Origin: Candidatus Omnitrophota bacterium
GTDB taxonomy: Bacteria > Omnitrophota > Gorgyraeia > Zapsychrales > Zapsychraceae
DNA length: 64,000 nucleotides
NCBI GenBank assembly: GCA_029261055.1
Contig: JAJDCA010000053.1
Span: forward strand, 24,177 to 88,176
Direction: 5' to 3'
Position numbers and translations under genes: made by a program
In this document: positions 1,058-64,000 of the stretch, piece after piece
Layout: each line of letters opens with the position of its first letter
Numbering within the stretch: the stretch's first letter is position 1
The notes under the pieces: model-generated
The model's input: the letters and a program-made list of their open reading frames with translations, nothing else
What the model was told of the DNA's origin: nothing
Database searches by the model: none

Positions 1058-1188
1058 CAATCCTCGGGGGTTTGCTCTCTAAAATCTCAGGCAATCCCCC
1101 GAGGTTTGTTGCGGTTACATCGTCTTAACCATTCACAAACCTCGGGGGATGGCGCAGTTTTACGAAAGCCAACCCCCGAGGATTGTTT
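1058..1188. repeat. Nested inverted repeats built on a CCTCGGGGG/CCCCCGAGG core, between the two GT genes.
   Basis: The four arms are caatcctcgggggtttgc (about 1058), gcaatcccccgaggtttgttg (about 1091), cacaaacctcgggggatggc (about 1133) and gccaacccccgaggattg (about 1167). Outer and inner pairs are reverse complements with 1-2 mismatches. The core is itself palindromic, so alternative pairings are possible. Confidence 0.55.
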
Positions 1189-11775: not shown

Positions 11776-12390
11776 GATGACAGAAACCATCCGCCCTGCT
11801 TTTGCGCCTTGACGGCGATAGGAAAAATAATCTTTATTGCAGCAGGTACATTCCTCTGAATCAAATATATTTTCTTCTTTGACGCCTAACGATTTTAATT
11901 GATGCCTATTCACACGCATTAAGTCTAAAAAAAATTGTCCGGACAAATCCCGCCTTGTCTCTGCAGGAAAATATTCTTTAAATTCTTTCCCCACCTCATA
12001 ACAACACGGTCTAATCGCAGGGCCAAAGGCTATTTTTAAATCAGAGGGATCTGTATGAAAATACTTTTCCATCTCCTCAACGACTTTAAAAGCGATTTTT
12101 TTATGACTTCCCTGCCACCCTGCATGCACAAGGCCGATGGCTTTATTTTGAGGATCATAAAGAAAAATTGGTAAACAGTCTGCTGTGCGGATAGCTAAAG
12201 AAATATGCGGGACATTGGTTATCAAACCGTCAGCCTCTTCAGGTTCGATATGTGTTTGTGCTAGCTCTTTAGTAATACGAACAATTCTATTTCCGTGAAC
12301 CTGATGAAGAAAAACGCATGGATGATTTTCGTACGTTTTCCCAAAAAAGGTCATGACTTCTTTATCGGAAATGTGGTCAAATAACTTCAT
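11728..12390 (-). CDS. pgeF: YfiH/PgeF family purine nucleoside phosphorylase (laccase-domain protein). The C-terminal tail EKQEVEKQEVEK is translated from the E1 repeat.
   Basis: ...HQVHGNRIV..., ...RTADCLPIFLYD... and ...GLVHAGWQG... motifs are present. Confidence 0.75.
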   Translation of the reverse strand: MKLFDHISDKEVMTFFGKTYENHPCVFLHQVHGNRIVRITKELAQTHIEPEEADGLITNVPHISLAIRTADCLPIFLYDPQNKAIGLVHAGWQGSHKKIAFKVVEEMEKYFHTDPSDLKIAFGPAIRPCCYEVGKEFKEYFPAETRRDLSGQFFLDLMRVNRHQLKSLGVKEENIFDSEECTCCNKDYFSYRRQGAKAGRMVSVIMLKEKQEVEKQEVEK

Positions 12391-13780: not shown

Positions 13781-13905
13781 GCATAATGGGCATAATAAAT
13801 TATGCCCCTACAGACGACCATCGTACGGGCATGATTCATCATGCCCATGCAAACAACCCGCGCCCTCGTACGGGCATGATTTATCATGCCCTTATTATTA
13901 CAATA
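13781..13905. repeat. REP-like palindromic element, copy R2.
   Basis: gggcataataaattatgcccc - tacagacgaccatcgtac - gggcatgattcatcatgccc - atgcaaacaacccgcgccctcgtac - gggcatgatttatcatgccc. Confidence 0.75.
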
Positions 13906-14545: not shown

Positions 14546-14557
14546 TCTAATAAAAAA

Positions 14558-14612
14558 GGTGACAGCCACTTTTTTGCCATGGCGTTTAGTTTTCAAAAAA
14601 GTGGCTGTCACC
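14558..14612 (-). terminator. Rho-independent terminator ending the gsp operon.
   Basis: It is a perfect 18-bp inverted repeat, ggtgacagccactttttt ... aaaaaagtggctgtcacc. On the minus strand the hairpin is followed by uuuuuuauu, 6 nt after the gspM stop. Confidence 0.75.
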
Positions 14613-14617
14613 TTTTT

Positions 14618-15145
14618 TTACGGGATCAATACCCTGCTTAAAACCAAATGAATATTAAGAAGAGAATTTCTTTGGGATTTTTTATCAAGGCGAAGCTCAT
14701 CAACGCGGAAAAAATAAGGAGTATTTTGTAAGAGGTACAAAAAATGGGTGAGCTGCTCTATACGCCCTTCCAATTTAAGGCTAATAGAAAAAACTTTAAA
14801 AAATTCCTCTTCAGCCACCTTTTGAGGTTTCATTTCAGAAAAACGCAAATTCATCCGCTTAGTGATAGCTTCCACATCCGCAATAATGGCTGACATTTCT
14901 TTTTCATCCGAACCTTTCTGCCCAAAGGTATCGACTATTTCATTATATTGCTGCGTGACATGCTTATTTCGCTTAATGGTATTGAGATTTTTCTGCAAAC
15001 GCCTCTTTTGGGATTCCAATTTTTGAGTAACATCTTTAGACTTTTCCAAAAAAGGCGTCAAAAAACCTCGTTGTAGTAAGAAAAATAGAATCAGACTACC
15101 AAAAATAAAAAAAATCTGTTTTTCTCGTGTTTGTAATTTTAACAT
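14618..15145 (-). CDS. gspM: T2SS GspM / PilO-like inner-membrane component.
   Basis: The 175-aa ORF has a single N-terminal TM helix (IFFIFGSLILFFLL), a coiled coil and a periplasmic domain. It is the last gene after gspL in canonical order. Confidence 0.55.
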   Translation of the reverse strand: MLKLQTREKQIFFIFGSLILFFLLQRGFLTPFLEKSKDVTQKLESQKRRLQKNLNTIKRNKHVTQQYNEIVDTFGQKGSDEKEMSAIIADVEAITKRMNLRFSEMKPQKVAEEEFFKVFSISLKLEGRIEQLTHFLYLLQNTPYFFRVDELRLDKKSQRNSLLNIHLVLSRVLIP

Positions 15146-15158
15146 TTAAATTTCCTGA

Positions 15159-16607
15159 TCACTGATCACTTTTTAAGTCCTTACTCATCTCACACATCAT
15201 CTTAAAATTCGTTATTTCCCCTCGAATACTCTTGCGTTTTTTGGCATACTGCAATCTGACATTATAAAACATCAAGGAGGACACTATATTTGCCTGGAGG
15301 CTATTGACTAAAGAACCATCCTTGGATACCCCCTCCAATGTCAAAACCCCTTTGCTATCAATTTTTAAAGAGTCATAGGCAATGCCATTAGGCGTCACCT
15401 CATGCAACTCCACAATATAATCGGGAAGAAAAAACTGACTATTCAATTCTTCATTTAAAATACGCACCTGACGTATTTTGTCCTGAAAATCTTTTACTTT
15501 TGGCTTAATTTGATTCAAACGTCCATTAACCTCTTTAAGCTCCCGCCTATTTTGAAAACCATCAAACCCTAGTACTAAAATACTCAATACCGCAGCAACA
15601 AAAAAAAGGACTCCGGTTTTTATCCATTGACGCTTTTTTTGTTTCTTCTCTCGAGAGTCAACAACCTCCACAGGCAAAAGACTTAAAAAATTTTGAAAAT
15701 CAGAAAAAAGCAAACCTGTGATAACAGATAAACTTACTTTATGTTTCTTCCAAGCCTCCGCTGCGCTGATCGTTTTTTCACATGGAAAACCCTCCAAACA
15801 AGGAATCACATAGATAGGAATATCTGATCGACTTCTTAATTTTTCAATAAGCTGATCTGTCTCCTGAGCATCTCCAATAATCAAAACCTCAGATATCTCT
15901 TCACCCATTTTCTCTTTACGATATGTAGCCAAGGTCAAACTCAATTGCTCTACCAATGTATCCACATTGGCTGCCCCTAAATCGCTAAGCCCAACATTAA
16001 CTTCACGAGAAAATAACAATTCTTTTTGCCGACAAAAACATATTTCCGTACTATGCGTATCAATATTCATAATCACTGACGGAAAAGAACTCCCTTCTTG
16101 CCTTTTATTTTTTTGATAAATATACCAATGGTTAAGACCAAGAGAACTCAATGTTAAACTGTAATGCTGAATACCTGCCCGACGAAAAATACCTACATAA
16201 CGGTCAACTACACTTTTTTGTACAACAACAGCTAATACCTTGGCATACCCTGAAGAATTTTTCTCTAAAAGAATATAATCAAAAACAATTTCTTCTTTAG
16301 CATAAGGCACCTTATGGCTAATTTGCAAACTAAGCATTTGACGTATTTCTTCGTCAAATTGAGTCGGCAATTGAAAATGCAAAAGTGTGGCATCCCGCCG
16401 AGAAATAACAGCCGTAAGACCATCTAAATGAACCTTAGCACTGCTTGCCATTTTTGACACCAACTTAGCTATTTCTGCTTCGGCTAAATTTTGATGCGGC
16501 GCAATACGGCAACATGTTATTATGGGAGTACCACGAGCAGACATCACTTGCATTAATTTGACATGCGTGTCTGTAATTTCGATAGCAGTGGATGTATTCT
16601 TTTTCAT
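15159..16607 (-). CDS. gspL: T2SS GspL-like assembly platform protein with PilM-PilN-type architecture. The start is trimmed to MKKNTSTAIEI....
   Basis: It has a cytoplasmic actin-like (PilM-type) domain of about 330 aa, a TM helix (GVLFFVAAVLSILVLGF) and a periplasmic coiled-coil domain. It sits between gspK and gspM. Confidence 0.6.
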   Translation of the reverse strand: MKKNTSTAIEITDTHVKLMQVMSARGTPIITCCRIAPHQNLAEAEIAKLVSKMASSAKVHLDGLTAVISRRDATLLHFQLPTQFDEEIRQMLSLQISHKVPYAKEEIVFDYILLEKNSSGYAKVLAVVVQKSVVDRYVGIFRRAGIQHYSLTLSSLGLNHWYIYQKNKRQEGSSFPSVIMNIDTHSTEICFCRQKELLFSREVNVGLSDLGAANVDTLVEQLSLTLATYRKEKMGEEISEVLIIGDAQETDQLIEKLRSRSDIPIYVIPCLEGFPCEKTISAAEAWKKHKVSLSVITGLLFSDFQNFLSLLPVEVVDSREKKQKKRQWIKTGVLFFVAAVLSILVLGFDGFQNRRELKEVNGRLNQIKPKVKDFQDKIRQVRILNEELNSQFFLPDYIVELHEVTPNGIAYDSLKIDSKGVLTLEGVSKDGSLVNSLQANIVSSLMFYNVRLQYAKKRKSIRGEITNFKMMCEMSKDLKSDQ

Positions 16608-16765
16608 AAATAATAAAAAGACACAAGAAACAAGATGCAAAAAGCAAGAAACAAACAAATTTCAAATGACTGTGGCTGTTAATTTGTTTAATTCTTGAAT
16701 ATTAAAATTAGAGTATTACTTATATCTTGTATCTTGCTTCTTGTTTCTTGCTTCTTTACTTAATA
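16598..16765. repeat. Purine-arm/pyrimidine-arm element, copy E2.
   Basis: aaaagacacaagaaacaagatgcaaaaagcaagaaacaaacaaat ... about 60 nt ... cttatatcttgtatcttgcttcttgtttcttgcttctttactt. Confidence 0.7.
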
Positions 16766-17863
16766 CCTTCTCCAACCAACAATGGAAAGCTGATCACGAA
16801 AAATTACGGCTTCCATATTTGATACAACGTTTGATTTCTTATCTTTTGCTTTTATATGGATATTTAAATATTTTGAAAGCGTGGTTAAATGAATTTTCAT
16901 AGCCTGAAAAATAGCCCATTCACTTTTAATCAGTAATGACTCATTCATAATATCATACCGGTCATCTTCTGTCATAATTTGGCCATCTTCTCCTGCACGG
17001 TGCGCCAAAATTTTCACACCCAAACTATCCGCATCTCCTTCTTCAGCAAGCCCTTTACCTATACTATAATATCTCGCTAAAGCCATGAGAACCTCCTCCG
17101 AGGCTGTATTAATATTCACTACAAGTTGTGGCGCATCCTTTGGAAAAACCGTAACAAAATTTTTTATTTTACTGTAAATTTCAGACGTCATCCCTCGCAC
17201 TAACAAAAGCTCTTGAATACTGTCAAAAGGAAGATTCTTGCAATGGTACGGTTGGCTTAAATGGCTATAATAATCATCTTCAGCCCCTAAAACCTCTGTA
17301 AAAGAACCCACGGCTCCTAGATCTGCATCATGCCAATCGGCTACAGAGGCAGCAATAATCTGCGCCGTCTCCTCTTCTTCGACCCCTAAAATCGTAAGAA
17401 GATGTTGCAAAATTCCGTAATTATCCTTGGTTATGGCATTTAAATTGATTTTCCGGTCTTCATCGGTAAAACCGTAAACCATTTTAAATGACTCATTTTC
17501 CGGATCGACAACAGAATGAGCAATTTCAAAACCACCATCCCCGACAGAAACATCCTTAAACATTTCCTCGGAAGATTTTCCTTCCTCTAAAGTAAAACCA
17601 CATTGACCTAATGTATCAAACGTCTTTCCAAGATCATCCTTATTATCTTTTTCAATCTGCTTAATGGCATACATCAAGCCTGCCCAAGCGACATATCTAG
17701 ATTTAAGCTTACCGATGTAATGTTTGGTCAAACTCAATTCCACTTTGGATTTACGTCCTAAGCCAATAGCCAACACGGCCAAGATCATCAGAATCCACAA
17801 AACGACAATAAGTACTATACCAGAATTATTATTCGATTTAATGGATAATTTTGTAAAGTTCAA
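16760..17863 (-). CDS. gspK: T2SS minor pseudopilin GspK.
   Basis: The N-terminus SGIVLIVVLWILMILAVLAIGL is GspK-like. The large periplasmic domain is about 330 aa. Its position follows gspJ. Confidence 0.65.
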   Translation of the reverse strand: MNFTKLSIKSNNNSGIVLIVVLWILMILAVLAIGLGRKSKVELSLTKHYIGKLKSRYVAWAGLMYAIKQIEKDNKDDLGKTFDTLGQCGFTLEEGKSSEEMFKDVSVGDGGFEIAHSVVDPENESFKMVYGFTDEDRKINLNAITKDNYGILQHLLTILGVEEEETAQIIAASVADWHDADLGAVGSFTEVLGAEDDYYSHLSQPYHCKNLPFDSIQELLLVRGMTSEIYSKIKNFVTVFPKDAPQLVVNINTASEEVLMALARYYSIGKGLAEEGDADSLGVKILAHRAGEDGQIMTEDDRYDIMNESLLIKSEWAIFQAMKIHLTTLSKYLNIHIKAKDKKSNVVSNMEAVIFRDQLSIVGWRRY

Positions 17864-18630
17864 AACTCTTCCTCCCCCAACGAACCTGTAGGTATAAGAA
17901 TATCTCGCGTTAAAACCAAATCATCATGGTCAGGGTTATCTTTCAAGAATGTCATTTCCACACGAATCCCAAATGGAAGATGCTCGTATTCCCATTCATC
18001 TTTCCATTTTATTTCCGGATTATCTTTATCTCCGGCTTGGTGCGCATAAAAAAACTTAAGACCATTCTTTTTAACACGAATACTTAATATCTCAGCCTCC
18101 TCCTTCTTTCGTGATGAAGACTCTAAAGACTCAACAAAAGACATTTCCTCTCTCAAAAGAAACTTTGCATCCGAAGTCGTTTCTGAACGGACAACAATAG
18201 ACCCCATCCGTGATGAACGACTACCGACTACTGTTTTATGAATGCTCCCAAAATCAGGTTTTCCTAAATGATACCGCACCACCCTCAAACCGTTTTCTTC
18301 TGCCACAATAAATGTAATTTCTTCATCATCCCCTTCGAAAGCTTTTTTATCCTCATACGAATCAACAAAATTATAAAACACCATTTTTTCTAAATCTTGC
18401 CCAATCCGCTCCATAGCCCAACGCGCTTCACGATAAAGGCTATTGCTTTGTTCAGCCCTTTGATTAATTTTAATTCCATGCCAAAGCGTACTGTACAAAC
18501 TTGTGGCAATAACGGTAAAAATAGCCAAACCAAGCAATAATTCTAAAAGAGTAAAAGCTTTTTCAGAAGACGCAATAAATCGAGTCTTTACGTACAGACG
18601 CCATTTATGGCGTCTCCATAAAAAGATCAT
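17860..18630 (-). CDS. gspJ: T2SS minor pseudopilin GspJ.
   Basis: It has a prepilin N-terminal cleavage/methylation motif KAFTLLELLLGLAIFTVIA. Confidence 0.55.
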   Translation of the reverse strand: MIFLWRRHKWRLYVKTRFIASSEKAFTLLELLLGLAIFTVIATSLYSTLWHGIKINQRAEQSNSLYREARWAMERIGQDLEKMVFYNFVDSYEDKKAFEGDDEEITFIVAEENGLRVVRYHLGKPDFGSIHKTVVGSRSSRMGSIVVRSETTSDAKFLLREEMSFVESLESSSRKKEEAEILSIRVKKNGLKFFYAHQAGDKDNPEIKWKDEWEYEHLPFGIRVEMTFLKDNPDHDDLVLTRDILIPTGSLGEEEF

Positions 18631-19058
18631 TCTTTATTCTCCGAAGTTACTGAAAATGGCAGAAGATACGTCACCAAAGACAGCTGATTTTCCTTCTTCC
18701 CTGCTTGCCAAGCGATGTCTAAGCTAATTTCTTTTAACTTCAGATCACCTTCTTCCCCTTCCAATGTATTTTCTTGAAGAGTATATTTAAATTTCTCTTT
18801 TCGATCATTTTTAATCACATCATCAAATGATTGATCAAACAATCCTTTACGGATAATTTGATTCATCTTATCTTCAACTTTAAACATAACGACAGAATAA
18901 TCAGCTGTCTGTATTATCGCTCGCAAACTCATTACCAAGGCTTGAATGATTAATGTCAGGCTTACAGAAACAATCATCACTACAAGGAGCGATTCGATTA
19001 ATAATGAACCATTCGTCATTCGTGACGAGTGACGATTAAAATTCATAAACATACACAT
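18627..19058 (-). CDS. gspI: T2SS minor pseudopilin GspI-like.
   Basis: It has a prepilin-like N-terminus NGSLLIESLLVVMIVSVSL. It is small (143 aa) and positioned between gspH and gspJ. Confidence 0.5.
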   Translation of the reverse strand: MCMFMNFNRHSSRMTNGSLLIESLLVVMIVSVSLTLIIQALVMSLRAIIQTADYSVVMFKVEDKMNQIIRKGLFDQSFDDVIKNDRKEKFKYTLQENTLEGEEGDLKLKEISLDIAWQAGKKENQLSLVTYLLPFSVTSENKE

Positions 19059-19578
19059 ACCCGTTTAATTCTTTTGTGGAAATCATTAAACAATATTCAT
19101 CTAAACAAGTTTTAACATCAATTTTTCCCATTTTTCCATCAGCCGTAAAGTTAACAGATTCTTCATCTGCTTCCAATCTAACTTTTGCAGGCACATATGC
19201 AACCCGCCCAAGACGCCCGGACAACTGCTGCCATTTTTTTTCTGAGGTTGGATCTTTATATTCTAGCCAATACGCTTTATCTTCGAGATTGATAACAAGA
19301 CGATATTCCTGATTCTTGAGAATGGCACGACTTTGTGCATAACGCATGAGCTGCCCTAAATGATCTGCTGTTTGATTGAGTTGGCGCTTCCAATAGGAAC
19401 GGTTTAAGTTGGGAAACGATAATCCTGCGATAACACCTAAAATAGATATAACGAGAATAATTTCAAGGAGGGTAAAACCGTATGTACTGTCACGCTCCAG
19501 CTTCGCTAATTTTTGCTGAGGCGGGCGTGCCGCGCTTCTATTGCTCATCAAACCCATCATCCCAATTGACAATATCAT
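19036..19578 (-). CDS. gspH: T2SS minor pseudopilin GspH.
   Basis: It has a prepilin motif YGFTLLEIILVISILGVIAGL. Confidence 0.55.
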   Translation of the reverse strand: MILSIGMMGLMSNRSAARPPQQKLAKLERDSTYGFTLLEIILVISILGVIAGLSFPNLNRSYWKRQLNQTADHLGQLMRYAQSRAILKNQEYRLVINLEDKAYWLEYKDPTSEKKWQQLSGRLGRVAYVPAKVRLEADEESVNFTADGKMGKIDVKTCLDEYCLMISTKELNGYVYVYEF

Positions 19579-19981
19579 CTTCGCTTTCTACACCATCGGG
19601 ACCGTAAGAATACAAATCATATTCGTTAGTATTATGCCCTCCCGGAGCCACATACACATAATTTTTTTTCCAAGGATCTGTGGGAAGTTTTTTCTTTTTT
19701 AAGTACGGCCCGTTCCATTGCATAGGCTCCGGGGCTGAGTTCGGTTTTTCAAGCAACGCTCTTAAACCCTGCTCCGTCGTAGGATAATCACCATTATCCA
19801 ATTCATACATATCCAAAGCCGTAGAAATATTCGACTCAATGTCCACCCTGGCCGCATCTTTCTTAGCCTGTTTGCCTCGCCCGGATAACTTGGGAGCCAC
19901 CATAGCCGCCAGCATCACAATAATGCCGATCACTAATAAAATTTCGATAATAGTAAACCCTTCATTATTTCTTTTTTTCAT
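19538..19981 (-). CDS. gspG: T2SS major pseudopilin GspG.
   Basis: EGFTIIEILLVIGIIVMLAAMVAPKL, ...ALDMYELDNGDYPTTEQGLRALL..., ...DPWKKNYVYV... and ...GPDGVESEDDIVNW are hallmark GspG blocks. Confidence 0.85.
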   Translation of the reverse strand: MKKRNNEGFTIIEILLVIGIIVMLAAMVAPKLSGRGKQAKKDAARVDIESNISTALDMYELDNGDYPTTEQGLRALLEKPNSAPEPMQWNGPYLKKKKLPTDPWKKNYVYVAPGGHNTNEYDLYSYGPDGVESEDDIVNWDDGFDEQ

Positions 19982-20030
19982 CTTTGTCCCTTTCTTAAAC
20001 TCATTACTCGCTTAAATTACGGTAAACATT

Positions 20031-20363
20031 CAATCAAGCCGTCTACTGGGAGGTTATGTTAAAACCTTTCGGCTCAAAGGACGCAATATTTTTGTCGCGT
20101 CCAATTCGCCTACAGGCTTCAACATAACCTCTTGTTAAGACGACTTGATTGAATGTTTACCTATTAAGAAAATCGTAATCGCGCAGAGTAAAGATTGACA
20201 TATGCGGCGAACCATTCGACAAGCTTAAAATGGTGGTGAGCTTGTCGAACCATTGGAGATCGACCAGAAGGAGATCTCCTCTGAGCCGAATATGTTAATC
20301 TTTACTTAGGAGATTGCAAATAACATATCAGCAATCTCTTAAAAGCGATTTCGCGTCTCTAAC
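20031..20363. repeat. Structured dispersed repeat of about 330 bp, copy M2, inverted relative to M1.
   Basis: The reverse complement aligns with 8748-9080, sharing for example ...ccaatggttcgacaagctcacc...agcttgt(c/t)gaatggttcgcc... and ...cctgtaggcgaattggacgcgacaaaaata.... It has its own stem of about 45 bp, ggtaaacattcaatcaagccgtc ... gacgacttgattgaatgtttacc. Confidence 0.75.
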
Positions 20364-20368
20364 TTAAA

Positions 20369-21595
20369 TTATATCGCTAAATTCATATTAATAATAGGCA
20401 ACAATAAAGCGATAACCATAAAAAGAACAATACAGGCTATCACAAAAATTAAAGCCGGCTCTACCAAAGACATCATCACCTTAATCCATGCCGAAGAACG
20501 ACGCTCGTGAAGATCGGCGAGCTTAAAAAGCCCCTTTTCTAACTCACCTGTCTCCTCTCCGATAGCAATAATACTCACAGTTGATTCAGGAATAACTGAA
20601 CATTTCCCCATTGCCTTCGTCAAACTTGTTCCCTTTTTCACTTCTAAAGCAACAAAAGAAATTTCCTTTTTTAAAACAGCATTCGTCAAAACATCACGCA
20701 CGGCATCTAAAGCGGTCACAATAACGACCCCGCTATCTAACAATGTCCCTAAACTCCTGGCAAAGCGCCCTATCTCAACATCCCGAATGAAATCCCCTAA
20801 AACAGGAACACTTAACGTAAACGCATCCAACCACAATTTTCCCTTAACCGTATTTTTAAGCGTATTAATGTAAACGACCACCGCACCTATCCCTGCCAAC
20901 ATTAACCACCAAAAATGAATAAACATATCACTTATGCCAATAAGAATTTTTGTTGGCAAAGGAAGGCCTTGATCCATATCTTCAAACATCACAGTTAATT
21001 GAGGAATAGCAAAAATCATCAAAGCGGTAATAACAACAGCCCCCACAATTAAAATAAATACCGGATAGACAAGACTTGATGTCACCTTGGAACGGATTTC
21101 TTGATCCTTCTCAGCAAATTCAGCTAAACGTTTCAAAACAATAGCAAGATTTCCGCCAATTTCTCCGGATTTGACCATATTGATATACATCGGAGAAAAA
21201 ATATTTTTGTGACGGGCTAAAGCGCTAGAAAATGTCCCCCCATCCTCAACAACATTGTACATGTCAGAAATAATACTTTTTAGCTGTACACTCTTGGTTT
21301 GATTAAGAATAATCCGTAGGCCTCTCAAAAGAGGAACATTCGCATCAACTAAATCATACATCTGCCGTGTAAAAAAAGCTATTTGAGCAAGAGAAATACG
21401 CTTAAATAAATTAATTGAAGCCATCGAGGTACGCGACTGCGTTTTAGCCTGCACTTCGGATGCCGGAGAAACGGCCAGAGGCGTATACCCAAGCTTTGCA
21501 ATTTTAGCAACGGCACTATTGATATCATCAGCTTCAATAACACCTTTAACAATTTGATCAGGACCTTGCTTGGCTTTGTAAATAAATTTTGGCAT
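20369..21595 (-). CDS. gspF: T2SS inner-membrane platform protein GspF (PilC family).
   Basis: The 408-aa ORF has two GspF/PilC repeats and three TM segments. Confidence 0.85.
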   Translation of the reverse strand: MPKFIYKAKQGPDQIVKGVIEADDINSAVAKIAKLGYTPLAVSPASEVQAKTQSRTSMASINLFKRISLAQIAFFTRQMYDLVDANVPLLRGLRIILNQTKSVQLKSIISDMYNVVEDGGTFSSALARHKNIFSPMYINMVKSGEIGGNLAIVLKRLAEFAEKDQEIRSKVTSSLVYPVFILIVGAVVITALMIFAIPQLTVMFEDMDQGLPLPTKILIGISDMFIHFWWLMLAGIGAVVVYINTLKNTVKGKLWLDAFTLSVPVLGDFIRDVEIGRFARSLGTLLDSGVVIVTALDAVRDVLTNAVLKKEISFVALEVKKGTSLTKAMGKCSVIPESTVSIIAIGEETGELEKGLFKLADLHERRSSAWIKVMMSLVEPALIFVIACIVLFMVIALLLPIINMNLAI

Positions 21596-21598
21596 TAA

Positions 21599-21698
21599 AT
21601 GAATAATTTAAAGGGCATGATGAATCATGCCCCTACAAACGACACTCCCCGTACGGGCATGATTTATCATGCCCCTAATCGATTCATCATGCCCTAAT
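21599..21698. repeat. REP-like palindromic element, copy R3.
   Basis: gggcatgatgaatcatgcccc - tacaaacgacactccccgtac - gggcatgatttatcatgcccc - taatc - gattcatcatgccc. Confidence 0.75.
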
Positions 21699-21701
21699 CG
21701 A

Positions 21702-23396
21702 TTATTCCTCCTGCGTCACACGCAACACTTCACTCGGGGTAGTCATACCTTGTTTAATTTTTTCCCATCCATCCTGACGCAAGGTCTTCATCCCCATTTC
21801 TACAGCGCGAGTACGAATTTGTGCAGCTGTAGCCCTCGACATAATCATTTCTTGAATATCATCACTCAGCGGTAAGAATTCATAAATCCCCTGTCGACCT
21901 TGATACCCTGTATGTTTGCAATTATCACATCCACGGCCTTTATAAACTTCCAATCCTTCAGCCTCTTCCGGAAGCAAATCAAACTCTCTAATGACTTCGG
22001 CAGATATCTTTTCAGCAACTTTACAATCCGGACAAACCAAACGCACAAGCCTCTGTGCCATAAAACACTGAACAGAACTGGCAATTAAATAAGCTTCTAC
22101 CCCCATATCTAAAAGACGTGTAACTCCACTCGCTGCGTCGTTGGTATGCAGGGTTGAAAAAACCAAATGTCCCGTCAAAGCAACCTGAACAGAAATTTCC
22201 GCTGTTTCTAAATCACGCACTTCCCCGACCATAATAATGTCAGGGTCATGACGCAATATAGATCGCAACCCATCTTTAAAACGAAACCCGATACGCGGAT
22301 TAATTTGCGTCTGTGTAATCCCACGCATTTGATATTCAATAGGATCTTCAATAGTGATAATCTTACGGTCAATTTTATTAATCCGGGAAAGACAAGAATA
22401 AAGGGTGGTTGTTTTTCCACTACCTGTAGGTCCCGTAACAAAAATAATTCCATGTGGACTTTTAATCATGTTATCGAGTAATTTAAGATTTGATTTAACA
22501 AGGCCAAGCTCTTCAAGGCTGTAAAGACGTGTCGCATTAAGAATCCTGATAACAACACTTTCCCCAAACGGCGTCGGTAAAAATGATACACGTAAATCCA
22601 AATCAATATCTTTGACCTTTACCTTAAATCGCCCATCTTGCGGCAAGCGTTTTTCAGCAATATTAATATTCGACAAAATTTTAATACGCGAATTAATGGC
22701 TTCTTTGAAATGCAAAATATTTGCAGGCACCTTGGCATCATACAGCGCCCCATCAATCCGATAACGGATCGACAATTCTTTTTCGTACGGCTCAATGTGA
22801 ATATCAGTTGCTCTGTCCTTGTAGGCCTCCAAAAGAATTTGATTCAAAAGTTTCCCCACTGAGGCTTCGGACCCAATATCATCAATATCTTCTACTCCGA
22901 GTTCAGAAGATTCAGAAGATTCAACAGACCCCATAATCTGATCGATCGTCTCAGCACCAACCCCGTAATATTTCCGTAAAGCTTCTAAAATATCTTTTTC
23001 GCTGGCTAAAACTGTCTTAAGTTTGCTTTTAACAACTAAACTAATGCCATCGATAATATGGATATCTAAAGGATTCGTCAGGGCAATGGTCAAGACATCT
23101 TCTTGAAAATCCAAAGGAAGGACCTTGTAATAATAAGCATATTTGGCAGGAATTTGTGCTAAGGCGTCAGGCTTAACTTCAGTTTTCTTTAGATCAATAT
23201 ATTCAATGCCAAGATGCTCGGCAAGAATCGGGTAATACATGGTTTCTTCTTCGACATACCCGAGTTTTAATAAAGATTCTCCAAGGAGATCTCCGCTTTC
23301 TTCTTGTTCCTTGAGTGCCTTGTTAAGCTGCTCTTGAGTGATCACCTTGTGCTTAATAAGCACCTCACCCAGTTTCATTTTATCGCCATCTAACAT
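21702..23396 (-). CDS. gspE: T2SS ATPase GspE (PilB/GspE family).
   Basis: It has an N-terminal GSPII_E_N-type domain, a Walker A GPTGSGKTTTLY motif, Asp/His boxes and a C-terminal tetracysteine CPDC...CDNC. Confidence 0.9.
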   Translation of the reverse strand: MLDGDKMKLGEVLIKHKVITQEQLNKALKEQEESGDLLGESLLKLGYVEEETMYYPILAEHLGIEYIDLKKTEVKPDALAQIPAKYAYYYKVLPLDFQEDVLTIALTNPLDIHIIDGISLVVKSKLKTVLASEKDILEALRKYYGVGAETIDQIMGSVESSESSELGVEDIDDIGSEASVGKLLNQILLEAYKDRATDIHIEPYEKELSIRYRIDGALYDAKVPANILHFKEAINSRIKILSNINIAEKRLPQDGRFKVKVKDIDLDLRVSFLPTPFGESVVIRILNATRLYSLEELGLVKSNLKLLDNMIKSPHGIIFVTGPTGSGKTTTLYSCLSRINKIDRKIITIEDPIEYQMRGITQTQINPRIGFRFKDGLRSILRHDPDIIMVGEVRDLETAEISVQVALTGHLVFSTLHTNDAASGVTRLLDMGVEAYLIASSVQCFMAQRLVRLVCPDCKVAEKISAEVIREFDLLPEEAEGLEVYKGRGCDNCKHTGYQGRQGIYEFLPLSDDIQEMIMSRATAAQIRTRAVEMGMKTLRQDGWEKIKQGMTTPSEVLRVTQEE

Positions 23397-23460
23397 GCGA
23401 TAAGCTTAACATTTTTTGAGGGGAGCTTCAATACGAATTTGGCTTTTGGAGCTATTATTT

Positions 23461-23560
23461 TTTAAAGAAGCAAGAAACAAAGAGGCAAGAGGCAAAGATT
23501 TAGAACATCTCTGCTTCTTGCCTCTTTACCTCTTTACCTCTCTACTTCTTCATACCCAAA
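23461..23560. repeat. Purine-arm/pyrimidine-arm element, copy E3.
   Basis: agaagcaagaaacaaagaggcaagaggcaaagatttagaacatctctgcttcttgcctctttacctctttacctctctacttctt. Confidence 0.7.
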
Positions 23561-23563
23561 CCT

Positions 23564-26500
23564 TTATGGCGCAGACTGAATGACCACCTTATCCACATAA
23601 AGATTCCTGTCACCGCTTGAACCGTAATAATCATTTGTGAACGCAATGGCTACTTTATGCATACCTGCAGAAACATTACTGACACTCACGTACGGCCCAT
23701 ACGAAGTTGAATTTACTGTAAAATTATCCACAGCTACTTGATCTACTCTCACCTCCATTTTAGACCACTCCCCTAACACCTTTTTACCTCGTGCTCTTAT
23801 TTCAAAACTGTAACTGCCACTCGTTGGAAAATCGACCGTCTCCTCAATATATCCATTACTCCAAATATTCCAACTCCCATCACTCTTTCTTCCCCCTGTT
23901 GTTTTAGTTTCCATATTCTCTGCTTCAATTTGTATCGTAAATGGCTCCGGATCTGGTATAGGATTAGGCGGTGTTACATCTCCTCCGCTTCCACTCATTA
24001 ATGTAATATTTATTTTATCTACATAAAGATTCCTGTCGCCACTTGTACCGTAGTAATCATTTGTGAACGCAATGGCTATATTGTGTAAACCTGCAGGAAC
24101 ATCCTTAACGCTCACATATTGCCCAAATGAAGTTGAATTAACTGTAAAGTTATCCACGACAACTTGATCTACCTTCAACTCCATTTTTGACCATTCATTT
24201 AAAATGTTTTTTCCTCGTGCTCTTATTTCAAAAGTATACCTACCATCCGTTGGAAAATCGACGGCTTCTTCGATATATCCATTACTCCAGATATTCCAAC
24301 TCCCATCACTCTTTCTTCCTCCTGTTGTCTTAGTTCCCATATTCTCAGCCTCAATTTGTATCACAAATGGTGCTGGATCTGGTGTAGGCTCCGGCGTGGG
24401 ATCTGGTGCAGGATCAGGTGCAAGATCAGGCGTTACATCTCCTCCACTTACACTCATTAATGTAATATTTACTTTATCCACATAAAGATTCCTGTCACCA
24501 CTTGAACCGTAGTAATCATTCGTGAACGCAATGGCTATATTATGTAAACCTGCCGGAACATTCTTAACGCTCACATATTGCCCAAATGAAGTTGAATTAA
24601 CTAGAAAATTACCCACAACAACTTGATCTACCCTCAACTCCATTTTTGACCATTCATTTAAAATATTTTTTCCTCGTGCTCTTATTTCGAAACTGTAACT
24701 TCCATCTATTGGAAAATCGACAGCTTCTTCGATATATCCATTACTCCAGATATTCCAACTCCCATCACTCTTTTTTCCTCCTGTTGTCTTAGTTCCCATA
24801 TTCTCGGCTTCAATTTGTATCGCAAATGGTGTGAAATCAGCCATGGTCGTCACAGACGTAGACACAGATTGCCCGGATTCATTACTCATCAAATCTAAAG
24901 CTGCAACTCTATAAGAGTATGCCATTCCAGCTGTTAAACCTGTATCCGTGTGGCTAACACTTAATACATTCGTTATTAAAACGCCATCCCGATATATATT
25001 ATATCCTGTCACACCTACATTATCTGTTGATGCACTCCAGTTAAGATCTACCTGTGAAGAAGAAATCGCTATTGCACTGAGGTTCATCGGCATTGATGGG
25101 GCCTCAGTGTCAATATTAGGTACTGGAATTGGTGCTGGCAAAATATCCAGATTCAATTTTGTTACAATTACTGTATACATTCGAGGGGATTGATTCCCTC
25201 CCAAAATAATCTTTCCAGCAGAAAAATTCTTTGCTAATACACTCATTGATCGAATTGATGTTGCAAGATCATCTCCGGTATCTACAAATCCTGACAACCA
25301 TGCAGGCTTATCCGTTTGCCTATTGTCATAAGTTATGTATACCGTAACGTCCTGATCAACATCAAAACTCAAAAAGGTAGCACTACTGGAAGATTTGTCA
25401 TTATTGGATGTTTTAATATAGGTTGCCCCTTGAAGCTGAGAAGGAACACTACTATACATATACGTACGGTCAATATACGCCAAAACACCATTGTTCAAAC
25501 TATCATAGATCACCTGATAGGTCTCTCCACTTTCAACAGATAGATTGCTAATAACTAATGGCATTACATATCTGTATGTAATTTGTGTACCTACAGGAAT
25601 CGCGTTGGCTGAATTAGACAAGTCCCGCACATTAGAAATGCTGAGAGTGTAGGAAACACCTTCACTATGTGGTGATGTAACCAAGGTAACTGTTTTTTGA
25701 TCAACCCCTAAATAAGCATCCACAACAGAAATGCTGTTATTGATTTTATAATTAGATAATGTAGTAGCACTTATTAATTCTACCTGTTCGCTGTAAGTGA
25801 TATCTACTGTATTTCCATTGCTCCCGGCTATTACAGACATAATTCCCGGAGGAAGAATATCTGTCAAAGTACTTACTGTTGCCGAAAAACTTTTCGATGA
25901 TTCCAACCCTGTACTATTAACAGCTGACACTTCATATGTGTGAGAAGCGCCTGATGTTAATCCTGTGTTGGAAAATTGAAGAGATGATGTTTGGTTAATT
26001 TTGACACCGTCTCGATAAATATTATATGTGCTTACACTAGATTCCAAATCAATAGCTGCTGACCAATTGAGATCAATTTGAGATTCACTAACAGCAATTC
26101 CACTAAGATTTTGAGGTGTTGAAGGTGGCGTTGTATCTGGCGTTGAAGGCCCGCCTTCAAGTTCCTTCATAATTTTAAAAAATTCACCACTATGCAAAAT
26201 GGTCTCATAACCATAAAATCCTAACGAAGATGATCCTCTTGATCGAACAACCTTCCAATCATCATAAGCTGCTTCAGCAATGGCACGCCATTTTGGAGCC
26301 GTATCATACCATTGTGAATTTGTTCCTTCCCCATTGTCGTAAAGCTTCCATAAATAGGCTAAAGCATACATCAGATGTGTGCTTCCTCCATCCGTGTTAC
26401 GTGAAGCTTCGGAATAAACAAAATAGGGATGTGATTTTAAATTTTCTTCCCAACCAAATTTCACAACAAAGTTCATGGTTTGCAATAACATCTCTTTTAT

Positions 26501-28798
26501 AAGAGAAGCATCTACATAACTATAATCTTTATCTGTTTCATAAAATTTAATCAAGGAAGCTAAAACAGACCCTGCCATCCAGGGATTAGTTCCGTTATAA
26601 AGCAACTTACCTTGTTTATATTCTGATGGCCACGGAGAATTATCTTGTCGTGGATACATATGCCACCAGCCCGTTCCTTGTGTCCAATCATTCTGACCAA
26701 CAACGGTCCCATTCACCCAATGTTCGGATGGCATCTGCCACCATTGAATAAGATGATTAACTTCCTGGGCTGCCGCTTGAAGATATTTAGTATCTCCCGT
26801 CGCCCTAAAAACTTCATTCATGACAAACAACGGCCAGCCAAAATCCCGTTCAGCCTCACCCCAATGCTCATTACCTACAGGTGTTGGGAAAAAAACAGGG
26901 ATAGCTTTGGCCCACCAATTTCCTACCTCTTTAATAACACCCAATGAACGCTTGTCTCCCGTCAAAATATAATAATCCGGCAGCCCTGAAACATGGGCAT
27001 GTCCCTTATGAATGTTTCTCGAGTTATGATCGTGTACATCATGCTTAATCATATGCCCTTCACCGGGCCCGAAATCTTTATTGCCCCATGGCCCACCGCG
27101 ACGGTCAGTATGCGAAACATCAACATCCATCCAATGGCGTGAAGCCTTTTCAGCTAATTCCCACCATCGTTTATCTTTCGTACGAAGATATTGGATAAAA
27201 TACTGATGCGCCCCGACATGTGTGTCATTATAAAATGCAGGTATGCGTACCCCATTAGAACTTGTCCCATCCCAACCGGCCCGCATACGGTCACCAAAAT
27301 CTCGCCAACCATACATAACCGTAATACCTCCAGTATCTTTTTTATCTTCAATGCTTCTCTTATAATATCCACTGATCAAATTATCATCATAACCAGCTGA
27401 CCAAGGACCAGCCTCAACCATATCCCCAAATACTTTTGATTGGGCATACCATGTAGCAGGTGCTGTCACTAATGGATAATGCGCTTGAAAAACTTTATTA
27501 TGATTACTGATATCCGCTATGGATTTACTCTGATTGTGGAAATCAAATAGAATTTGATACGTCTTTGCCCCACCTTCTCGAGAAAAATAAAATGTATTTG
27601 GCCTTTTGTATTTTTTATTGACTGCATCATGTGGCGGATACGAAAGATCCGGCGTTGGTGACGAAGCTCGTGTTGGGTGAAGGTAAGCAATTAATGCATT
27701 ATTTTCAATAGCAAACTCTTTTGGATATTGCTGCCAAAAATCTTTAATCATCACACCCACACCAGATCCAGTATTATTGCTACTCACGTCCATCCATCCA
27801 GGGGCCTTTGCTCCTGAACCAGCGCCTTCATAACCAAAATCAAATGGTTGCAATCCACCATCAATATAATTCATATCCCCATGCTGATATAAGTAATGAT
27901 TCCCTGACACTGGACCGGTGAGTGTTTGATTATTTTCTCCACCAAATGCATACATCGCATTAGAAAGATTAAGAGGAAGTTTCAAACCATATCCCGTGAC
28001 ACTTAATGCTAATTGACTACGGGAAGCGGCCACATCCTTTTCTAAACGTGTATCCACTAAAGTATAATCCATTTGAATTTGACCTTGCCCAGCATAAGCA
28101 TACAACCAGACAATAAAATCCGTTAAAGTGCTACCATTGTCCGTTTGGAGCTTACCTTCTACCTTAACTGTCATACGAATCGGTCCGCTTTCCTCTATTG
28201 TATAAACCGGCTGCGTAAATAAGGAGGAAGAGTATTCTAAATTGTCGAAGGCATTAATAAGGAAAATTTTACCTGGCTGGCTCATCATTTTTTCAGAATC
28301 GTCATAAAATCCATCCGCATTATTATCCACCCAAACCTGATCAAATACTGTAAACGCACTCTTATTTAATTCAAATTGAATAGCCCCCGTATCAACGAGA
28401 ATTGATGACCCATTATCTACGTAAGAAAGCCCTTCACTATAAGTGGAATGGCTAACGCCTGATCCATACTGGAGAACATAATCTGTTGTTAAATTTGTTG
28501 ATATATCAGAGGCAAAATGAACTAAAATAGATTTGTAGCTGCTGTCCGGCCATTGAACAAGACCTTCAAATTGAGCGGGTATTTCAACACCACCCAAGTT
28601 TTCCAGACGCAAATTATTTAAAGAAGTCACCGCTCCCCTTGGAAAGGGAACACCTGTTGAAACCATGTAATTATTAACATCGGCTGAACCTGCATCCACA
28701 GTTAGAGTAACACTATTTTGAGCGTTGACATTTTGAATTTCTCCGGAAGTTGTCAGAATCACAGAAGCGACCAATAATATGAGCATTTTATTTTTCAT
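23564..28798 (-). CDS. Large secreted multidomain protein: signal peptide, an N-terminal domain of about 800 aa (possible glycan-active or binding fold), two FN3 modules with Ig-like spacers, and three tandem C-terminal carbohydrate-binding modules (CBM6/35-like) joined by Pro/Thr-rich linkers.
   Basis: The signal peptide is MKNKMLILLVASVILTTSGEIQNVNA, with an AGGAGG RBS 7 nt upstream. The FN3-like repeats read ...NLSGIAVSESQIDLNWSA...YNIYRDG.... There are three IQIEAENMGTKTTGG(K/R)KSDGSWNIWSNGYIEE...FTNDYYG(S/T)SGDRNLYVDK units. The linkers read PDLAPDPAPDPTPEPTPDPAP. Confidence 0.7.
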   Translation of the reverse strand: MKNKMLILLVASVILTTSGEIQNVNAQNSVTLTVDAGSADVNNYMVSTGVPFPRGAVTSLNNLRLENLGGVEIPAQFEGLVQWPDSSYKSILVHFASDISTNLTTDYVLQYGSGVSHSTYSEGLSYVDNGSSILVDTGAIQFELNKSAFTVFDQVWVDNNADGFYDDSEKMMSQPGKIFLINAFDNLEYSSSLFTQPVYTIEESGPIRMTVKVEGKLQTDNGSTLTDFIVWLYAYAGQGQIQMDYTLVDTRLEKDVAASRSQLALSVTGYGLKLPLNLSNAMYAFGGENNQTLTGPVSGNHYLYQHGDMNYIDGGLQPFDFGYEGAGSGAKAPGWMDVSSNNTGSGVGVMIKDFWQQYPKEFAIENNALIAYLHPTRASSPTPDLSYPPHDAVNKKYKRPNTFYFSREGGAKTYQILFDFHNQSKSIADISNHNKVFQAHYPLVTAPATWYAQSKVFGDMVEAGPWSAGYDDNLISGYYKRSIEDKKDTGGITVMYGWRDFGDRMRAGWDGTSSNGVRIPAFYNDTHVGAHQYFIQYLRTKDKRWWELAEKASRHWMDVDVSHTDRRGGPWGNKDFGPGEGHMIKHDVHDHNSRNIHKGHAHVSGLPDYYILTGDKRSLGVIKEVGNWWAKAIPVFFPTPVGNEHWGEAERDFGWPLFVMNEVFRATGDTKYLQAAAQEVNHLIQWWQMPSEHWVNGTVVGQNDWTQGTGWWHMYPRQDNSPWPSEYKQGKLLYNGTNPWMAGSVLASLIKFYETDKDYSYVDASLIKEMLLQTMNFVVKFGWEENLKSHPYFVYSEASRNTDGGSTHLMYALAYLWKLYDNGEGTNSQWYDTAPKWRAIAEAAYDDWKVVRSRGSSSLGFYGYETILHSGEFFKIMKELEGGPSTPDTTPPSTPQNLSGIAVSESQIDLNWSAAIDLESSVSTYNIYRDGVKINQTSSLQFSNTGLTSGASHTYEVSAVNSTGLESSKSFSATVSTLTDILPPGIMSVIAGSNGNTVDITYSEQVELISATTLSNYKINNSISVVDAYLGVDQKTVTLVTSPHSEGVSYTLSISNVRDLSNSANAIPVGTQITYRYVMPLVISNLSVESGETYQVIYDSLNNGVLAYIDRTYMYSSVPSQLQGATYIKTSNNDKSSSSATFLSFDVDQDVTVYITYDNRQTDKPAWLSGFVDTGDDLATSIRSMSVLAKNFSAGKIILGGNQSPRMYTVIVTKLNLDILPAPIPVPNIDTEAPSMPMNLSAIAISSSQVDLNWSASTDNVGVTGYNIYRDGVLITNVLSVSHTDTGLTAGMAYSYRVAALDLMSNESGQSVSTSVTTMADFTPFAIQIEAENMGTKTTGGKKSDGSWNIWSNGYIEEAVDFPIDGSYSFEIRARGKNILNEWSKMELRVDQVVVGNFLVNSTSFGQYVSVKNVPAGLHNIAIAFTNDYYGSSGDRNLYVDKVNITLMSVSGGDVTPDLAPDPAPDPTPEPTPDPAPFVIQIEAENMGTKTTGGRKSDGSWNIWSNGYIEEAVDFPTDGRYTFEIRARGKNILNEWSKMELKVDQVVVDNFTVNSTSFGQYVSVKDVPAGLHNIAIAFTNDYYGTSGDRNLYVDKINITLMSGSGGDVTPPNPIPDPEPFTIQIEAENMETKTTGGRKSDGSWNIWSNGYIEETVDFPTSGSYSFEIRARGKKVLGEWSKMEVRVDQVAVDNFTVNSTSYGPYVSVSNVSAGMHKVAIAFTNDYYGSSGDRNLYVDKVVIQSAP
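23583..24840. repeat. Intragenic tandem repeat of about 440-455 bp, three copies, encoding the three CBM units.
   Basis: Near-identical blocks begin at about 23583, 24010 and 24465 (...ccacataaagattcctgtc(a/g)cc(g/a)cttg(a/t)accgta...). Copies 2 and 3 are more similar to each other than to copy 1. Confidence 0.75.
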
Positions 28799-28951: not shown

Positions 28952-28990
28952 TAAAAAAAGGCCTATCCTCACTTTTCGTAAGAATAGGCC
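28952..28990 (-). terminator. Rho-independent terminator about 450 nt downstream of trpF.
   Basis: The hairpin is ggcctatcctcac-ttttcg-taagaataggcc. On the minus strand it is followed by uuuuuuua (plus-strand taaaaaaa at about 28952-28959). Confidence 0.6.
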
Positions 28991-29444
28991 CATCCTATTA
29001 TTGACGCGTTTGCGCCTTTGTCTTTTTAATAAAATCTTCTGACTAATAGGTAGCTGGCTACCCTGCTTCTATCCTGCAGGGCCCTTGGCTTTGTGCCCCA
29101 TCCTTACGAATGGTTTACCTTTTTCTATTTCCATTGAAAGTATAACATGAAAAGATCGATGCGCAAGGGACCGGGAGGAACTTTATACAATTTTTTTATA
29201 CGGGGGATTAAAAACTATAGCGGAAGAAAACACAACTCATTGCAATCGTGCAAATTACAAAAAAATAAAATAACCTAAATTTTTTTAATATATTAAATTT
29301 TTTTGCATTTTAATTTTGACGCACTATGACAACAATGGACATACTATGACATTTAGGAGCCAAGCAGAAATAACTTCCCTAATTTTTACGACGTTCTTAA
29401 CGCAAGGAGGCAGAATAAAGAAGAAAATTATTTTTGCTTGGTCT

Positions 29445-61666: not shown

Positions 61667-64000
<2,334 letters not shown>

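Follow-up and report, generated by a model that had tools for sequence, protein, structure and literature searches.

In a 64-kb stretch of DNA from a Candidatus Omnitrophota bacterium (assembly GCA_029261055.1, contig JAJDCA010000053.1; 39% GC content), hereafter the window, an intact set of nine type II secretion system (T2SS) genes, gspE-F-G-H-I-J-K-L-M, occupies positions 14618-23396 of the minus strand. Directly upstream on the same strand lies a gene for a 1744-residue secreted protein that carries a PL26-like module and three CBM60 carbohydrate-binding modules (CBMs). By a narrow balance of probability, we read these genes as a unit in which a cargo protein and its secretion machinery are encoded together under the control of cyclic di-GMP (c-di-GMP), bounded by two terminators and with the secretin encoded elsewhere. 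The co-directional unit would cover about 14.4 kb between terminators at 28991-28952 and 14617-14552, and would run in the order riboswitch, 1744-residue enzyme gene, long hairpin, gspE-F, two hairpins and gspG-M. Its gsp genes encode the secretion ATPase, the platform in the inner membrane and the pseudopilus of a T2SS of a kind common among Omnitrophota. Sec would export the large protein to the periplasm, and the T2SS would most likely push it across the outer membrane; the CBMs would hold the protein on the polysaccharide cleaved by its PL26-like module. In this scheme c-di-GMP would probably act twice, on the mRNA of the large gene via the riboswitch and on GspE via its MshEN-type N-terminus.

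Genes of the block were assigned with Pfam and NCBIfam profiles, some calls being made from position or prepilin motif. The block comprises the following features, where ↓ marks the prepilin cleavage site and distances are given in nucleotides (nt) or base pairs (bp).

21702-23396, minus strand: gspE, secretion ATPase (T2SSE 445 bits; TIGR02533 604.6 bits).
20369-21595, minus strand: gspF, inner-membrane platform (T2SSF 196 bits, in two stretches; TIGR02120 363.7 bits).
20017-20165 and 20180-20312, minus strand: two very stable hairpins in the 387-nt gspF-gspG spacer (-87.2 kcal/mol, z = -15.4; -54.8 kcal/mol, z = -7.4).
19538-19981, minus strand: gspG, major pseudopilin, cleavage G↓FTIIE (T2SSG 1.9e-34; TIGR01710 151 bits against a cut-off of 88.85).
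19036-19578, minus strand: gspH-like minor pseudopilin, G↓FTLLE (N_methyl; GspH 1.1e-3 and TIGR01708 2.7e-11, all below cut-off).
18627-19058, minus strand: minor pseudopilin in the gspI position, G↓SLLIE (called from position and prepilin motif, with no family match).
17860-18630, minus strand: gspJ-like minor pseudopilin, A↓FTLLE (N_methyl 2e-5; TIGR01711 6.1e-8, below cut-off).
16760-17863, minus strand: gspK, minor pseudopilin (T2SSK_1st 70.3 bits against a cut-off of 26.2; NF037980 124.5 bits against 130).
15159-16658, minus strand: gspL-type platform protein (PilM_2 1.7e-9 and PilN 7.5e-8 in one chain).
14618-15145, minus strand: gspM, PilO-like platform protein (PilO 37.6 bits against a cut-off of 22; T2SSM_b 23.7 against 21.7; NF040576, GspM_XpsM, 8.6e-8).
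14552-14617, minus strand: strong intrinsic terminator closing the block (25-bp stem, 17-nt loop, U6; -37.4 kcal/mol, z = -8.6).

TIGR02533 and TIGR02120 are the top-ranked families for GspE and GspF, with scores slightly under their equivalog cut-offs. The gspH-like gene is homologous to the H-position genes of related loci. The gspI-position gene, to which neither Pfam nor NCBIfam profiles gave a family, has weak phmmer matches to the I-position genes of two relatives (L003 and L007). The N-terminus of GspK, G↓IVLIVVL, is without Glu5, as in GspK generally. A PilM-like actin-fold domain, a transmembrane segment and a PilN-like domain are fused in the gspL product, which is the architecture of GspL; the true start of this gene is probably the ATG at 16607, giving 482 residues, the length of the database copy (P0062). 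All nine genes match in length their counterparts in two related loci, L167 and L168. By every internal feature that can be tested, with the H, I and J calls tentative, the E-M block is identified from its profiles and motifs as a type II secretion system. The gene identities and canonical order proposed by a sequence-only reading of this DNA are thus borne out by family profiles and relatives, and the strong terminator that it placed after gspM is real. A pattern scan had overlooked this terminator because its loop is 17 nt long. It occupies the 72 nt that separate gspM from the next gene, which encodes an HhH-GPD glycosylase and probably starts at the ATG at 14545.

The two hairpins between gspF and gspG belong to no Rfam family. 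Their arms are found nowhere else in the window, and on this ground a repeated mobile element was rejected. Their role may lie in RNA processing or stability, and thereby in setting the stoichiometry of the pseudopilins, or they may be a decayed insertion. As for other RNA families inside the gsp block, Rfam returned only spurious miRNA-like hairpin matches; the HepC_CRE and miRNA-type matches in the locus are artefacts of simple hairpins.

The gene immediately upstream of gspE had been read as encoding a signal-peptide protein of 1744 residues with three CBMs, and the profiles agree, placing all three modules in CBM60. The protein is laid out as follows.

23564-28798, minus strand: large gene, encoding a secreted multidomain glycan-active protein of 1744 residues (Pfam, AlphaFold, Foldseek).
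28721-28798, minus strand: signal peptide of the n-h-c type, MKNK-MLILLVASVILTT-...VNA↓Q, recognized by inspection.
26159-28720, minus strand: PL26-like three-domain module (Pfam, model, Foldseek).
25889-26122, minus strand: first Fn3 domain (Pfam).
25124-25876, minus strand: β-rich region without a family, defined by the layout of the protein.
24884-25093, minus strand: second Fn3 domain (Pfam).
24455-24826, 23996-24370 and 23567-23944, minus strand: three CBM60 modules (57.8, 60.9 and 59.7 bits, in the order reported, against a cut-off of 28.2).

Profile searches of the N-terminal part placed PcRGLX_2nd above its cut-off (52.8 bits against 23.5); PcRGLX_1st and a GH127-like catalytic domain scored too low to pass. 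An AlphaFold model, built for residues 1-880 only and on 27 sequences, has a predicted local distance difference test score (pLDDT) of 87.5 and a predicted template modelling score (pTM) of 0.90. It is all-β over residues 27-425 and helical over residues 427-880. Foldseek matched the model over its full length to PcRGLX, the PL26 exo-rhamnogalacturonan lyase of Penicillium chrysogenum (5xqg/5xq3; E = 1.8e-24, TM 0.61, 15-17% identity), with no near second. This succession of a β part and a helical part, and the match to a PL26 lyase, agree with the earlier guess of an enzyme fold containing an (α/α)6 domain. The same three-domain architecture is shared with PcRGLX over 880 residues. The window protein differs in a weak resemblance to the catalytic domain of GH127 and in its Fn3 and CBM60 extensions, which are not present in PcRGLX. 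Because identity is only 15-17% and the family has an invariant His/Asp cluster of its own (H527, H563, H586, D590, H591, H597 and H600), we would file the modelled protein as PcRGLX-like rather than as a member of PL26. Close homologues are 40-60% identical to it over the first 880 residues and differ in their C-terminal decorations. By inspection, the protein has no lipobox, no transmembrane segment and no C-terminal sorting domain; a signal peptide in such a setting would fit a T2SS substrate in a diderm.

The leader of the large gene contains a riboswitch of the c-di-GMP-I class, which falls outside the coordinates of the earlier reading, goes unmentioned there and alters how the locus is to be understood. 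Three features were placed there, using Rfam for the aptamer.

29139-29166, minus strand: candidate sigma-70 promoter TTGCGC-16 nt-TATACT, read from the sequence, about 10 nt 5' of the riboswitch.
29045-29128, minus strand: riboswitch aptamer of the c-di-GMP-I clan (GEMM-I, CL00126), RF03167 59.3 bits against a gathering score of 59 (E = 1.8e-11 for the window, 2.3e-13 for the local search).
28952-28991, minus strand: intrinsic terminator with a 14-bp stem, a GAAAA loop and U7, 54 nt 3' of the aptamer.

The aptamer is on the same strand as the large gene, within the 646 nt that separate this gene from trpF, and its end is 247 nt 5' of the ATG at 28798. The full RF03167 model, positions 1-80, is matched; an overlapping match from the same clan scored lower and was dropped. 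In the alignment, the window has A at the G of the variant consensus 'CGCGAAG', as in canonical class I, and the ligand is probably c-di-GMP. The terminator downstream is likely the expression platform, and it also closes the trp operon. The P1 3' strand (CCUAUU) could form a helix with an AAUAGG just ahead of the terminator, though it offers no convincing competition to the 14-bp stem. The candidate promoter has a weak -35 element (3/6) and is not in the promoter scan list; we only infer its role. Riboswitches of the c-di-GMP-I class also lie inside two related clusters, between E and F in L003 and before the pilin genes in L106. The one in L003, at 11780-11902, sits in a 1.1-kb gap without open reading frames (ORFs).

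A second c-di-GMP element would reside in GspE itself. Residues 8-60 (nt 23217-23375) form a MshE/PilF-type motif pair that matches NF053729 ('c-di-GMP_motif') with 57.1 bits against a cut-off of 38. The motifs span residues 8-31 and 37-60, are separated by the spacer EESGD and agree with the relaxed motif at 10/11 and 9/11 positions. The best matches of this N-terminus in the PDB are the GSPII-B domain of Thermus PilF (8pdk), then MshEN (5htl). Two 24-residue motifs with a 5-residue spacer define c-di-GMP binding by MshEN, and both T2SS and type IV pilus (T4P) ATPases that bind the messenger are known (PMC5013675). As in MshE, PA14_29490 and Thermus PilF (PMC5013675; 5htl, 8pdk), the two motifs and the spacer are at the extreme N-terminus of the ATPase. 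The two motifs of GspE begin with KLGE... and LLGE..., like those of PilF GSPII-B, a proven binder. To judge from these motifs, GspE is likely to bind c-di-GMP, although three key positions deviate. Elsewhere in the window, two adjacent PilZ-domain genes (57562-58562) lie beside a SelO-like gene (55756-57561); pilZ genes have been described beside giant genes in Omnitrophota (bioRxiv 10.1101/2023.11.21.568195).

The tie between enzyme and machinery is suggested by homologues of the large gene. In four loci, a homologue of 53-61% identity and a gene for a REC-MshEN-T2SSE ATPase form a divergent pair.

L082, 7766-14029: divergent ATPase/PcRGLX-like pair.
L085, 7678-14296: divergent ATPase/PcRGLX-like pair.
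L087, 890-6523: divergent ATPase/PcRGLX-like pair.
L089, 7643-14368: divergent ATPase/PcRGLX-like pair.

The ATPases are 615-635 residues long with 58-74% mutual identity, and the genomes have 57-65% GC and flanks that are unrelated apart from the pair. Next to the REC-fused ATPase, neither a T2SS F gene nor a pseudopilin gene was detected in these four loci; in L089, one weak GspG-like match (E = 6e-6) lies about 6 kb past the PcRGLX-like gene. In L106, the homologue is 5-7 kb from a secretin-E-F-riboswitch-pilin cluster. Adjacency across genomes whose composition differs so strongly (39% GC in the window) is hard to ascribe to chance or to a shared neighbourhood ancestry, and we judge that a functional link between cargo and machinery is the more probable case.

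Within the window, large gene and gspE are separated by one marked structure.

23463-23545, minus strand: long hairpin with a purine-rich 5' arm and a pyrimidine-rich 3' arm, between the large gene and gspE (-57.5 kcal/mol, z = -6.9).

The hairpin is followed by an A-run, not a U-run, and no canonical terminator, that is a stem followed by a U-tract, was found between the two genes. Its Rfam matches were only spurious ones of the hairpin type; possible functions are attenuation and an effect on mRNA stability. A promoter-like sequence, TTGAAG-17-TAAGCT, lies 6 nt 5' of the annotated gspE ATG.

Several observations weigh against a single c-di-GMP-controlled unit. Together, the hairpin and the promoter-like sequence separate the large gene from gspE, and the two may therefore be transcribed separately. 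The earlier proposal of a cargo co-expressed with its machinery remains plausible and is supported by the riboswitch, the MshEN-type GspE and the homologues that repeatedly lie beside T2SSE genes, though the stable hairpin before gspE speaks against taking co-transcription as given. A scan with GspE over one genome per species, in which 80 related loci were kept and the window's own genome was not among them, found a homologue of the large gene beside none of the 80, including the closest, L002 (67% GspE identity). Likewise, a riboswitch was found upstream of the homologue in 0/7 homologue loci tested; the sole c-di-GMP-I match among them is the one of L106, ahead of the pilin genes. The score of the window's riboswitch sits at the threshold of a variant model, RF03167, and is marginal, and folding gave no ON or OFF sense for it. 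GspE does not follow the relaxed motif expression exactly: K17 stands for the turn Gly of motif 1 and E60 (Glu/His) for the final Gln of motif 2, two positions at which it differs from the MshE and PilF binders, and L37 stands for Arg. Finally, the secretin was not located. A search with an Omnitrophota secretin profile, whose candidates were pre-filtered by shared words, gave 1060 matches, and none of the best 120 comes from the window's own contig.

Part of these observations would also be accounted for if the large gene and the T2SS genes were chance neighbours, a possibility that we take seriously and yet find doubtful. A riboswitch-controlled enzyme would then sit between the trp operon and a split T2SS operon, and would leave the cell by another export route or by any T2SS that the cell has. 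The absence of the pairing from 80/80 related gspE loci, and the strong hairpin and TTGAAG-17-TAAGCT just 5' of gspE, are as expected from such a neighbourhood. What stands upstream of gspE differs from one relative to the next (ATP synthase, FabF, RsmB/CAAX protease), and several homologues of the large gene have no nearby secretion genes (L083/L084/L090, L088). However, homologues stand beside T2SSE-type ATPases in at least two compositional settings (39% and 57-65% GC), which is unlikely by chance. No canonical terminator intervenes between the two genes, and c-di-GMP is a common thread of the riboswitch and the MshEN-type GspE.

The reading of one cargo-plus-machinery unit also requires a secretin, and the layout of related loci, read with limited flanks, indicates where such a gene might be sought. 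After L002, the closest GspE is that of L003 (Candidatus Omnitrophota, 58% identity). The order E-F-G-H-I-J-K-L-M recurs in five Omnitrophota loci (L003, L008, L009, L012 and L013) and is also present in Nitrospirota, Hydrogenedentota, Firestonebacteria, Elusimicrobia and Leptospira. The closest GspL homologues are 35-38% identical and include those of the L167 and L168 contexts. In L167, L168, L003, L011 and L020 the full order is E-F-G-H-I-J-K-L-M, sometimes an AAA_22 ATPase gene, a short GspC-like gene and a secretin gene. The GspC-like products have 179-249 residues and are weakly T2SSC-like, and the secretins have about 550-575 residues, those encoded near the closest GspL homologues 556-574; a profile of these secretins retrieves proteins named Candidatus Omnitrophota at NCBI, in line with the phylum. 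Three other Omnitrophota loci, L008, L009 and L012, stop after gspM and a TPR gene, and their 10-kb flank holds no secretin gene. Secretin-free operons of this kind recur in Omnitrophota. In proteobacteria gspC and gspD are placed ahead of gspE. No secretin gene was found in that position in the relatives, where the genes upstream of gspE encode ATP synthase, FabF, RsmB, a CAAX protease or HtrA; among those examined, only the Elusimicrobia locus L024 has the order D-E. Since the tail follows gspM in the relatives, the usual place of the secretin gene in this lineage is 3' of gspM, not 5' of gspE. The earlier statement that the large gene takes the usual place of gspC and gspD does not hold, as housekeeping genes are found there. 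For annotation outside Proteobacteria, the secretin should be sought 3' of gspM and not 5' of gspE.

Two of these relatives have peculiarities of their own. In L003 (11680-12768 and 13985), F and H have no gspG between them, and the 1.1-kb gap without ORFs lies between E and F. In the Hydrogenedentota locus L011, the protein in the GspM position (17575-18645) joins a T2SSM N-terminus to a CBM_4_9 domain.

In the window, the search for the missing components was negative. A Pfam scan of ORFs of at least 150 residues across the 64 kb gave no match to Secretin (PF00263), T2SSC or Peptidase_A24. The jackhmmer secretin profile had zero matches in stop-to-stop ORFs of at least 40 residues, and in the same ORFs phmmer found nothing at E <= 1 when queried with the GspC-like genes (L003, L167 and L168) or the AAA_22 genes of relatives. 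The absence of gspC and gspD, first remarked around the block, therefore extends to the whole window. LpxK, KdtA, a lipid A acyltransferase and a heptosyltransferase are encoded at 1188-7681, and NrdD and NrdG are also encoded in the window. These lipopolysaccharide (LPS) and ribonucleotide reductase genes indicate an anaerobic diderm with LPS, which would therefore need a conduit through the outer membrane. The secretins of the three nearest GspL-bearing contigs all rank among the best 120 matches to the secretin profile, which is moderate evidence, not proof, that the contig of the window has no orthologous secretin. The genes of the missing secretin and of the GspC-like protein most likely lie at another place in the genome, and so does that of the prepilin peptidase (GspO/PilD), which is commonly located away from the T2SS locus. 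A split system is the ordinary reading of a secretin-free locus because other Omnitrophota loci also end without a secretin. The tests for secretin, GspC and peptidase failed only within the window, and a claim of a secretin-free T2SS is not supported beyond these 64 kb.

True loss of the secretin is, in our view, unlikely. The E-M module would in that case use another outer-membrane conduit, work only in the periplasm, or be decaying. The 64 kb hold no C or D sequence or remnant, and only 72 nt with a terminator follow gspM. The contig is absent from the best 120 of 1060 secretin-profile matches, where its three nearest GspL contigs are represented, and L008, L009 and L012 are likewise without a nearby secretin. 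Nevertheless, nine intact genes of normal length argue against decay. The view is limited to 64 kb and to the best 120 of 1060 matches; T2SS genes are often scattered over several loci, as in Legionella lsp, and no T2SS conduit other than a secretin is known. A stronger form of the same idea, also improbable, is that the lineage dropped the GspC-secretin tail and kept a c-di-GMP-gated pseudopilus, with a dedicated PL26-like/CBM60 cargo leaving by a non-secretin route or with a role as a contact device against prey or host. If this were true, the pairings of enzyme and ATPase, including the orphan REC-fused ones, would mark an unrecognized export partnership.

Least probable of all is that the E-M block builds a c-di-GMP-driven surface fibre, an adhesive or predatory pilus like MSHA, instead of secreting proteins, with the large protein as a surface factor that binds and cuts glycans during attachment to prey or host cells: the MshE/PilF-type N-terminus is that of pilus extension ATPases (PMC5013675), the best Pfam models for L and M are PilM, PilN and PilO, the window has two PilZ genes, and long secreted proteins, T2SS/T4P-like loci, carbohydrate-active enzymes (CAZymes) and pilZ have been linked to predation in Omnitrophota (bioRxiv 10.1101/2023.11.21.568195; 10.64898/2026.06.07.730766), but the major subunit passes the equivalog cut-off as a genuine GspG, a GspK without Glu5 and a fused GspL-type PilM-PilN protein are hallmarks of a T2SS, the block has no PilT retraction ATPase, and a pilus on the surface would depend on a secretin to the same degree.

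Compared with the classical Gsp systems (Klebsiella Pul, Vibrio Eps, Pseudomonas Xcp), the window has the same E-M set in the same internal order and is without gspC, gspD and gspO. Its E, F and K fall just under the NCBIfam equivalog cut-offs, and its L and M favour the PilM, PilN and PilO models. Moreover, its relatives place the C-like gene and a short secretin gene after gspM, not before gspE as in the classical systems. The nearer Omnitrophota loci (L167, L168 and L003) share the gene order and similar gene lengths, with GspE identities of 58-67% and GspL identities of 35-38%, and L003 further shares a c-di-GMP-I riboswitch in the cluster. Unlike the window, which ends at a terminator, they run on to the (AAA_22)-GspC-like-secretin tail, and none of them has a PL26-like/CBM60 gene 5' of gspE. 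In Legionella pneumophila the lsp genes are reportedly scattered over several T2SS loci, with secretin, GspC and peptidase genes apart from those of the inner-membrane complex and pseudopilus; the split in the window would follow another ancestral order, E...M-C-D.

For the riboswitch, the nearest parallel is Vc1 of Vibrio cholerae, a c-di-GMP-I riboswitch said to lie upstream of gbpA, whose glycan-binding product is reportedly exported by the Eps T2SS; we take this as a lead only. In both cases a GEMM-I element heads the mRNA of a secreted carbohydrate-binding protein, and the bacterium is a diderm that bears a T2SS. In the window, by contrast, the gene under putative control is directly 5' of the T2SS genes and encodes a large PL26-like/CBM60 enzyme, and the best model is the RF03167 variant, at threshold. 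For the large protein, the parallel is with the giant secreted proteins of Omnitrophota, which are flanked by T2SS/T4P-like genes, CAZymes and pilZ (bioRxiv 10.1101/2023.11.21.568195; 10.64898/2026.06.07.730766). Like the window, these loci combine a large carbohydrate-active protein that is secreted with neighbouring genes for secretion or pili, and with pilZ near. The giant proteins, however, exceed 7,000 residues and have many transmembrane segments, and gspD/E/F and RcpC (Tad-like) genes precede them, whereas the protein of the window has 1744 residues, is soluble and neighbours a Gsp-type E-M block.

None of the individual parts of the locus is new. To our knowledge, their combination, with a riboswitch, a PL26-like/CBM60 cargo, a MshEN-type GspE and a pseudopilus operon without a tail, has not been described. 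Members of the Omnitrophota are uncultured nanobacteria that may be predatory, and what is known of their secretion comes only from the neighbourhoods of genes. If the proposed unit is real, it would be a compact example, in this phylum, of control by a second messenger at two levels, the synthesis of the cargo (riboswitch) and the secretion motor (MshEN). The locus also draws attention to an uncharacterized family of PL26-like enzymes, the genes of which repeatedly lie beside T2SS-type ATPases.

Some further features of the window lie outside the unit. A palindrome of the GGGCATGAT(A/G)AATCATGCCC type is present in three copies at 13800-13895, 3' of the HhH-GPD gene and ahead of rmuC. The gene at 49229-52411 encodes a protein of 1060 residues with a Fic domain and a Methyltransf_28 domain. 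Finally, three fused genes are found at 1188-5305 and 61667-63724, encoding a GT4 and GT9 (heptosyltransferase) fusion of 719 residues, a lipid A acyltransferase joined to an ELM1-like domain (653 residues) and a BioD-BioA fusion of 685 residues.

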